Source: Thermoanaerobaculia bacterium (GTDB taxonomy: Bacteria; Acidobacteriota; Thermoanaerobaculia; Gp7-AA8). From it: 64,000 nt of DNA. The stretch spans positions 35,776 to 99,775 of the forward strand of contig DATKCA010000025.1 in NCBI GenBank assembly GCA_035544675.1, read 5' to 3'. A model generated the notes under the pieces. That model was given only the letters and a program-made list of their open reading frames with translations, had not been told where the DNA came from and ran no database searches. Made by a program: the position numbers and the translations under genes. Of the stretch, positions 10,779 to 11,875 are shown one piece after another. Position 1 is the first letter of the stretch. The number at the start of each line of letters is the position of its first letter.

Positions 10779-11360
10779 TTACCTGTCGTGGAACGGGTCG
10801 ATGCCGGCGTGGCGCAACATCTGAAACAGCGTAGCAAGCGGCAGTCCCACCACATTGGTATAGCTGCCGTGAATCGAGTCGATGAACATGGCGCCGATTC
10901 CCTGGACTGCGTACGCGCCTGCTTTGTCGAGCGGCTCTCCTGTCCGAACATACCACTCGATCTCGGCGGGGGTCAGCTGCAGCATGCGCACTTCCGACTC
11001 CGCGACGCGCGTCTCGCTGTGGCGGACATCGAGATTCTGCAGCGTCAAGCCCGTGTAGACGACGTGGGTTTTTCCGGCGATCGTGCCGAGCATGCGCGCG
11101 GCATCCGGCCCGTCCAGAGGCTTCTCCAGAAGCTGGTCACCGAGGAGCACGGTGGTGTCGGCGGCGATCACCCAACGCGAGGAGTGCTGCGCTGCGACGG
11201 CCTGGGCCTTGTCCCGGGAGAGGCGGGCCACGTACTCCTCCGGCGCCTCGCCGGGCTGGTGAACTTCCGGGACGTCGCTGGGCACGATCTCGAAGTCGAG
11301 TCCGATCGACGCGAGAAGCTCCCGCCGTCTGGGAGATGACGAGGCCAGGATGAACCTCAA
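10779..11360 (-). CDS. maf: Maf-like nucleoside triphosphate pyrophosphatase / septum formation protein
   Basis: RFILASSSPRRRELL...ADTTV...AYAVQG motifs. Probable TTG start (about 11360) 4 nt over the stop of the upstream toxin-antitoxin ORF. Confidence 0.85.
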   Translation of the reverse strand: MRFILASSSPRRRELLASIGLDFEIVPSDVPEVHQPGEAPEEYVARLSRDKAQAVAAQHSSRWVIAADTTVLLGDQLLEKPLDGPDAARMLGTIAGKTHVVYTGLTLQNLDVRHSETRVAESEVRMLQLTPAEIEWYVRTGEPLDKAGAYAVQGIGAMFIDSIHGSYTNVVGLPLATLFQMLRHAGIDPFHDR

Positions 11361-11875
11361 GCCGCTCTCACGATCGCGAACACGGCGATGAAGCGCGCCT
11401 CGGCCACGACGCGGTAGACGATGCGGAGGTGTCCGGCGCGGTAGCTCCACAGCCCGCGCATCGGATCGAAGAGCGGCGCCCCGATGATCGGATCGTCGTC
11501 GATGGCCACCATCGCCGCGCGCACCAGCGTCTGCTCCTCCGCGCTGAGCGAGGTCCACTCCTTCTCCACGGCCGCGGCCATGCGCAGCCGGTCGTTGCCC
11601 CGGGCCATCCCCAGATCCTCGGAGAGGAGCATGGCGCCGCGGCGGATCTCCTCCTCGGCCGCCGCGATGCGGGCCAGGAGGGCGGCGTCGGCGGCGATGT
11701 CGATGGTCTCCCGCAGGGCGAGGTATTCGTCGTGCGAGACCAGGATCGCCACGGCCCGTTCACCGCGGTGAAAGACGGTGCGGCGGCCGGTCAGCTCACA
11801 CTCGGCGACCAGCTCTTTTACTTCCGGCGGCAGCTCCCACAGCTCCAGCCTCTTCTCGCTCGAACGATTCTCCAT
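11357..11875 (-). CDS. single-ORF fusion of Phd/YefM-type antitoxin and ParE/RelE-type toxin domains
   Basis: N-terminal half TVFHRGERAVAILVSHDEYLALRETIDIAADAALLARIAAAEEEIRRG is Phd/YefM-like. C-terminal half LWSYRAGHLRIVYRVVAEARFIAVFAIVRA is ParE/RelE-like. No stop between them. True start may lie downstream of the listed ATG, which overlaps the galU 3' end. Confidence 0.6.
   Translation of the reverse strand: MENRSSEKRLELWELPPEVKELVAECELTGRRTVFHRGERAVAILVSHDEYLALRETIDIAADAALLARIAAAEEEIRRGAMLLSEDLGMARGNDRLRMAAAVEKEWTSLSAEEQTLVRAAMVAIDDDPIIGAPLFDPMRGLWSYRAGHLRIVYRVVAEARFIAVFAIVRAA

Follow-up and report, generated by a model that had tools for sequence, protein, structure and literature searches.

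A conserved galU–maf locus of Thermoanaerobaculia encodes a RelB–RelE-like module either as one fused protein or as two genes

Introduction

Toxin-antitoxin (TA) modules are usually mobile, patchily distributed and composed of two genes. What, then, is represented by a single continuous open reading frame (ORF) in which an antitoxin-like half runs into a toxin-like half within a string of cell-envelope genes? Such an ORF lies in a 64,000-nucleotide stretch of DNA from a Thermoanaerobaculia bacterium (Acidobacteriota; assembly GCA_035544675.1, contig DATKCA010000025.1, positions 35,776 to 99,775), here called the window. A sequence-only reading of the window had described a Phd/YefM-like N-terminal half joined to a ParE/RelE-like C-terminal half, and had offered three accounts of it: a genuine single-chain TA, read-through of a lost stop codon, or a toxin translated from an internal start. 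The gene in question is the following.

11357..11875, minus strand: fused RelB (YefM/Phd-fold)–RelE-fold ORF of 172 amino acids, running from ATG to TGA; identified from the ORF list, an exact database match (P0001), Pfam and an AlphaFold2 model

The fused ORF is a genuine gene

Taken alone, the ORF is little proof of a gene because a G+C content of approximately 68% gives rise to long ORFs by chance in several frames. Searches with its translation returned 231 relatives, and more than 100 of these span the full length (144–200 amino acids, approximately 95% coverage, 45–87% identity), and all relatives of the fusion protein came from metagenomic genomes of the Thermoanaerobaculia/Acidobacteriota. 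On an independent Joint Genome Institute metagenome contig, compared through its gene coordinates, the protein P0002 is likewise a 172-amino acid fusion with 87% identity to the window protein; the contig carries a 313-amino acid galU, an 80-nt overlap with galU and a 4-nt overlap with maf, all as in the window. A further fusion, P0003, comes from an independent assembly near the window and is 73% identical. The description of antitoxin- and toxin-like halves in one continuous ORF is thus confirmed.

Selection acts on both parts of the protein. The ratio of nonsynonymous to synonymous substitution (dN/dS; pairwise NG86, close pairs) is well below 1 in both halves, at approximately 0.10 for loci in which the halves are separate genes and approximately 0.2 for fused loci, and both domains are therefore maintained; judged from these values, constraint is perhaps a little looser once the halves are fused. 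The fusion at 11357–11875 is a genuine gene, and both of its domains are under selection.

One site, two gene structures

Comparison of orthologous loci showed that the same chromosomal site holds either a two-gene pair or one fused gene. The comparison covered 88 loci, 8 found through exact-protein look-ups and 80 from a survey in which each GTDB species was represented by one genome; 99 species encode a relative, and the best 80 of the 99 were kept. The order galU–module–maf–mlaD, with ddl following mlaD, is retained in essentially every locus that reaches far enough among these Thermoanaerobaculia/Acidobacteriota metagenome-assembled genomes. Identity to the window is 60–83% for the neighbouring genes and only 40–70% for the module. 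The species representatives divide as follows.

39 of 80: fused, one ORF
21 of 80: two genes, with an 11-nt overlap between antitoxin stop and toxin start
19 of 80: two genes, with roughly 10–430 nt of spacer between them
1 of 80: incomplete

Many species thus carry the module as a conventional relBE-like pair, and others as a single-chain protein. The customary arrangement of two adjacent cistrons, antitoxin first, is replaced by one ORF in the window and is found in 40 of the 80 representatives; conserved antitoxin and toxin domains within one polypeptide occur in the other 39 complete ones and in more than 100 protein clusters. Taken with the purifying selection on both halves and the fused state of P0002 and P0003, this supports the first of the three accounts, a genuine single-chain protein.

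In the overlapping form, the toxin start codon is TTG or ATG, with W-N-D-R immediately following; the overlapping stretch is ...TTG TGG AAT GA..., and GGAGGA is found 5 nt upstream of the start. Programmed +1 frameshifting at ...GAA TGA CCG was rejected for these loci, nearly all of which have this TTG or ATG and its upstream GGAGGA. In three loci (L077, 1402–1424; L079 and L080, 5239–5261), ATC occupies the start position and no ATG, GTG or TTG precedes W-N-D-R in the toxin frame, pointing to initiation at a near-cognate codon or to very little translation of the toxin.

When the split junctions (...GAATGACCG...) are compared with the window, the difference is an in-frame multi-codon stretch, ATGGCCCGGGGC. 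The window junction, SEDLGMARGNDRL, is a linker shared with P0002 (GMPRGNDRL) and similar in P0003. The suggestion of a lost-stop read-through consequently holds in an evolutionary sense only: loci of sister lineages are ordinary two-gene pairs, but the window junction is more than a 1-nt change away from them. An artefactual 1-nt indel in the window is ruled out by the junction alignment together with the independent contig.

The locus has switched repeatedly between forms

Fitch parsimony on a neighbour-joining tree of concatenated GalU, Maf and MlaD proteins gave at least seven changes between fused and split forms, a number that, like the direction of the changes, is rough and indicative only, the tree being a quick one built on three neighbour proteins. 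In this tree, the window adjoins a clade composed wholly of the overlapping two-gene form.

One near-identical pair of loci differs in state. In the fused member (L089, protein P0016), ...GAAGACTTG runs directly into ATGTGGAAC..., and in its partner (L013) approximately 150 nt are inserted at that point. The insert (1263–1440, corresponding to about 770–790 in L089) falls precisely where the antitoxin and toxin parts meet and bears the inverted repeat CTGTCATTCCGAGCCG/CGGCTCGGGATGACAG. From its sequence, it looks like an element of the repetitive extragenic palindromic or miniature inverted-repeat transposable type that re-split a fused gene. The palindromic element is absent from the window and was found in one other fetched locus only. 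The spacers of the 19 spacer-type loci resemble a repeat element, as checked in L013.

Several details of these spacers were seen in passing. The L013 insert has a spurious translation, 'LSFRAG...'; the spacers in L025, L028, L029, L062 and L085 likewise resemble inserted repeats; and in L072 (about 1004–1410) a spacer of approximately 430 nt translates as repetitive 'GLGT.DLGLWTWDLGLRAWD...' units, which suggests a tandem-repeat array inserted at the junction.

Domain architecture and a missing catalytic tail

The fused protein divides into four parts.

11693..11875, minus strand: residues 1–61, Phd/YefM-type N-terminal domain (helix 17–29, strands 33–37 and 40–45, helix 48–61), from PF02604 on residues 19–79 and profile matches
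11612..11692, minus strand: residues 62–88 (helix 64–78, strand 82–84, short helix 85–88), counterpart of the toxin-binding C-terminal segment of RelB/YefM, from profile alignment to RelB1 and Rv2865
11591..11611, minus strand: residues 89–95 (GMARGND), junction or linker in place of the two-gene stop/start overlap, from the sequence and the split-junction comparison
11366..11590, minus strand: residues 96–170, RelE/ParE-fold domain (beta1 97–100, helices 101–108 and 112–127, beta2–4 142–170)

Residues 1–61 are presumed to serve in dimerisation and DNA binding. Considered singly, the window protein is a borderline case for Pfam, scoring 23.1 bits for ParE_toxin against a cutoff of 23, which is marginal, and 20.6–22.5 bits for PhdYeFM_antitox (PF02604), below its cutoff of 29.8; no meaningful NCBIfam match was obtained. 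Across the family, however, 37 of 39 members match both Pfam families, and the Phd and ParE assignments are to this extent borne out by hidden Markov models. The N-terminal half of a family profile (positions 12–84) matched RelB1 (9g12_C, E 1.4e-6) and Rv2865 (3g5o_A, E 9.5e-5), and its C-terminal half matched the toxin chains of M. tuberculosis RelBE1 (9g12) and RelBE2 (3g5o). With the family alignment, AlphaFold2 returned a confident two-domain model (predicted local distance difference test, pLDDT, 87; predicted template modelling score, pTM, 0.73), with pLDDT 90–95 over residues 62–88 and a secondary structure in the N-terminal half that agrees with the Phd/YefM fold. The protein thus has both a Phd/YefM (RelB-like) antitoxin fold, including its C-terminal toxin-binding segment, and a RelE/ParE (BECR) toxin fold. 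The antitoxin motif DEYxALxET is invariant, as are W143, R146, R151 and Y154 in the RelE-like domain; in two-gene orthologues, the antitoxin terminates 2–4 residues past ...PEDLF.

The Pfam model PF05016 spans RelE and ParE alike, and the best PDB matches by both sequence and structure are RelE proteins. The C-terminal domain is a member of the RelE/ParE superfamily with RelE as its nearest kin; the earlier label 'ParE/RelE-like' stands for the RelE part and is not demonstrable for ParE. The domain shares its fold with E. coli RelE (PDB 4fxe, 4v7j; Foldseek E 1.3e-4), together with the core motif ...RG...R..G.R(I/L)VY.V, and R61 of RelE aligns with R151.

The window protein terminates two residues past beta4, without the R81/Y87-type tail. 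Among 15 nearest free-standing canonical toxins, taken from an exhaustive profile search, all have a tyrosine aligned with E. coli RelE Y87, most with HR, KR or ER shortly before it in alignment with R81, and they share the core ...PL...L(K/R)GxWSYRxGxxRIVY.... R81 and Y87 are major catalytic residues of RelE for mRNA cleavage. The window protein and six toxins from split loci lack the tyrosine of the Y87 column and terminate 2–12 residues past beta4. In an hhalign alignment of the fusion with E. coli RelE, K52 falls in a gap, K54 corresponds to Ser144 and R81 to Ala171 (Arg170 adjacent), and the protein ends before any counterpart of Y87 and the C-terminal helix. From the RelE catalytic set (K52/K54, R61, R81, Y87), the equivalent of R61 (R151) alone is clearly kept, and that of R81 is not conserved. 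Given the family-wide loss of the (H/K/E)R...Y motif, the RelE-like domain is, we infer, an attenuated or catalytically dead RNase, and 'toxin' is possibly a misnomer for the C-terminal half.

A large subclade of fused proteins has gone further, having deleted the ...RGAMLLPEDLF neutralising segment along with approximately 11 residues of the toxin helical hairpin; its model is still confident (pLDDT 88, pTM 0.74). Such a deletion fits poorly with an active poison in need of restraint.

The operon setting

The neighbours of the fusion on the same strand, assigned by Pfam, are a galU-like nucleotidyltransferase gene, maf, an MlaD/MCE gene, a D-Ala-D-Ala ligase gene, ABC_tran_2 and DUF4870. The four nearest are placed as follows.

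11796..12737, minus strand: galU-like nucleotidyltransferase gene, upstream (Pfam); its last 80 nt (11796–11875) overlap the fusion ORF in another frame
10779..11360, minus strand: maf, downstream; starts with TTG and shares 4 nt (TTGA) with the fusion, whose stop is TGA
9169..10707, minus strand: MlaD/MCE-domain gene of the conserved gene string (Pfam, synteny)
8096..9187, minus strand: D-Ala-D-Ala ligase gene of the conserved gene string, start approximate (Pfam, synteny)

The 4-nt start/stop overlaps ascribed to the ORF were borne out on the maf side (TTGA), but not on the galU side, where the overlap is 80 nt. Within that overlap, the conserved frame is that of the fusion, and the arrangement is a lineage feature since it recurs on the independent contig at 87% identity. 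The galU-like ORF itself has a C-terminal tail of approximately 22–30 amino acids in excess of its orthologues, covering the first 26 fusion codons. A terminator scan of 6500–13200 gave hits at chance level only, none of them convincingly interrupting the gene string. The G+C profile of the module equals that of its neighbour genes, and this check for horizontal acquisition showed no anomaly.

A probable origin and a possible function

Our findings are probably best accounted for by an old relBE-type locus between galU and maf that is passed on vertically and whose fused allele, as seen here, now forms an attenuated 1:1 unit. The locus belongs to a single Thermoanaerobaculia (Acidobacteriota) clade and consists of two genes in sister lineages; merging of the two cistrons would have taken place in the lineage of the window and separately in others, tying each RelE-like domain 1:1 to an antitoxin of its own. 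By analogy with RelB–RelE and YefM–YoeB, and from homology to RelB1 and Rv2865, residues 62–88 would wrap the RelE-like domain in cis, and dimerisation through the N-terminal Phd domain may give the equivalent of a T–A2–T heterotetramer, like the RelB2–RelE2 tetramer. The module would act as a single obligate complex and not as a releasable poison, and, expressed together with the envelope genes, would most plausibly serve as an accessory factor or a DNA-binding regulator; the lack of a releasable poison would explain why repeated fusing and splitting has been tolerated.

It is tempting to speculate, albeit tentatively, that the RelBE module has been domesticated: long fixed in a cell-envelope operon and deprived of its catalytic tail, it may have become a non-toxic, obligate two-domain or two-subunit regulator, or a ribosome- or RNA-binding accessory, of galU–maf–mlaD–ddl. 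Were this so, the near-neutral switching between split and fused forms would amount to a natural experiment, and release of a free toxin would lie outside the function of the module.

Several observations weigh against an inactive regulatory unit of this kind. Residual RNase activity is possible, since catalytic residues vary in the RelE superfamily and R146 and R151, the latter aligned with RelE R61, are invariant; moreover, the RelE-like loop DDDPIxGAPLFxPLRGxWSxR is strongly conserved, and the domain must accordingly have some specific role. Scanning 6500–13200 revealed no sigma-70-like promoter, and reading by eye upstream of galU and the operon gave no convincing operator palindrome, only a lone TGATCA; the module itself has no intergenic space upstream because of the 80-nt overlap with galU. 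The roughness of the neighbour-gene tree limits what can be drawn from the switching. Finally, an internal Shine–Dalgarno sequence and ATG survive in the window: at the position of the ancestral toxin start, the ATG of M90 (11606–11608) is preceded by GAGGA (11616–11620) at 7-nt spacing, and M99 is likewise an ATG.

The main alternative is a latent single-chain TA, akin to EzeT or CapRel, in which an active translation inhibitor is restrained in cis and switched on by antitoxin proteolysis or by some trigger, for example envelope stress or a phage protein. Fused TAs with cis-acting antitoxin domains exist and can serve in defence (PMC4826407, PMC9712102, PMC11980606), and the window protein retains both the neutralising segment and, under purifying selection, the four invariant residues of the RelE-like domain. 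We nevertheless regard this alternative as unlikely: the R81/Y87-type motif is absent family-wide, the locus is vertically inherited and fixed in a core operon outside any defence island, the module has no defence match in PADLOC, and the deletion of the neutralising segment in one fused subclade would be expected to be lethal were the domain an active toxin. Were the C-terminal domain a ParE-type gyrase poison and not a RelE-type ribosome-dependent RNase, the lacking RNase residues would be expected and would be no sign of decay. ParE toxins usually have an extended C-terminus that is important in gyrase poisoning, whereas the domain here ends directly after beta4; furthermore, in sequence and structure it is best matched by RelE1, RelE2 and E. 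coli RelE, and its nearest free-standing relatives bear the RelE-type ...Y tail, mostly with HR or KR before it, making a ParE identity improbable.

The internal start invites a different account, in which the fused ORF is mainly a vehicle and the RelE-like part is made separately from M90 or M99, preserving two-protein behaviour. The well-placed GAGGA and ATG speak for it, and the window sequence makes separate translation of the C-terminal domain possible there. Yet most other fused orthologues have no in-frame start codon with a Shine–Dalgarno sequence at the junction, so that the internal start proposed earlier is present in the window without being a family property; GAGGA doubles as codons for the conserved E-D of the antitoxin; and, with no free antitoxin to neutralise it, surplus free toxin could be tolerated only were the domain harmless. 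We give this account little credence as an explanation of the fusion. Least probable by far is an assembly or sequencing artefact in which a lost stop or frameshift has joined an ordinary two-gene TA. It gains some colour from the neighbour-gene tree, in which the nearest species representatives have the two-gene form with the 11-nt overlap, but the window departs from that form by a multi-codon linker and not by a 1-nt indel, independent assemblies (P0002 and P0003) share the fused junction, and 39 of the 80 species representatives are fused. Considering the P0002 junction, the L089/L013 pair, the neighbour tree and the linker together, an assembly artefact is excluded for practical purposes.

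Relation to known systems

The closest solved relatives of the fusion are M. tuberculosis RelBE1 (Rv1247c/Rv1246c, 9g12) and RelBE2 (Rv2865/Rv2866, 3g5o), at approximately 20–24% identity. These are separate proteins whose toxins reach past beta4 (Rv2866, RelE2, has 102 residues, aligned only to about residue 96), whereas here the halves are covalently joined and the tail is missing. Characterised single-chain TAs with cis-acting antitoxin domains include EzeT of E. coli (PMC4826407) and CapRel(SJ46) (PMC9712102). Their toxin folds, a zeta kinase and a RelA/SpoT-like pyrophosphokinase respectively, are unrelated to the RelE-like domain, and their activity and triggers have been demonstrated, whereas the present fusion is known from sequence and lacks the catalytic tail.

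A closer parallel is provided by the 195 fused antitoxin-toxin genes of the RelE/ParE superfamily, including YefM–YoeB and ParD–ParE, catalogued by Gerdes (mBio 2025, PMC11980606). These mono-gene modules resemble ours in combining an N-terminal Phd/YefM DNA-binding antitoxin domain with a BECR-fold toxin domain of the RelE superfamily, and dimerisation through the YefM domain is predicted for them. The YefM fusions described there differ in carrying YoeB-type toxins with intact C-termini (e.g. ...VLRMWTHYE), and the published cases are not presented as syntenic orthologues embedded in an operon, split in some species and fused in others. No Thermoanaerobaculia entry turned up in the searchable part of its supplementary files when these were searched as text, and a literature search combining Thermoanaerobaculia with toxin-antitoxin returned nothing specific to the galU–maf locus.

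Because fused RelE/ParE-superfamily modules are already catalogued, the practical impact of our findings is modest. What is added here is a module that resides in a core operon, is inherited vertically, has fused and split repeatedly and has lost the catalytic tail throughout its family; the locus is a useful evolutionary case that introduces no new principle. A relBE-type locus has stayed at one chromosomal address across about 100 species while flipping between two-gene and single-chain forms, minus the motif that canonical RelE needs. If confirmed, it would offer a natural case of how fused TAs originate, including re-splitting through insertion of a repeat element, and of a 'toxin' fold kept for a job that involves no release of free toxin. 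Annotators should be aware that such fused ORFs are not frameshift errors.

Further features of the gene neighbourhood

The conserved string extends beyond the genes considered above. In the window (5948–14741) and in L001–L008, it comprises a 2-keto-3-deoxy-6-phosphogluconate aldolase-like gene, a small unknown ORF, a divergent BNR/Sortilin-Vps10-like gene, galU and the module, continuing with maf, mlaD, ddl, ABC_tran_2 and a DUF4870/MamF-like gene. The galU-like gene is missing from its usual place in L001, L018, L023 and L027, where the module comes first after the divergent BNR/sortilin-like gene; in L001, a 112-nt intergenic region that may hold a promoter or operator of its own precedes it. 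In L053 (5839–8184), an insertion of approximately 3.2 kb parts the module from maf and carries genes for an IS200-like Y1 transposase (PF01797, E 2.2e-7) and for an HTH_3 protein. Insertions of 1.7–1.8 kb lie inside the otherwise conserved gene string in L026, L024 and L045.
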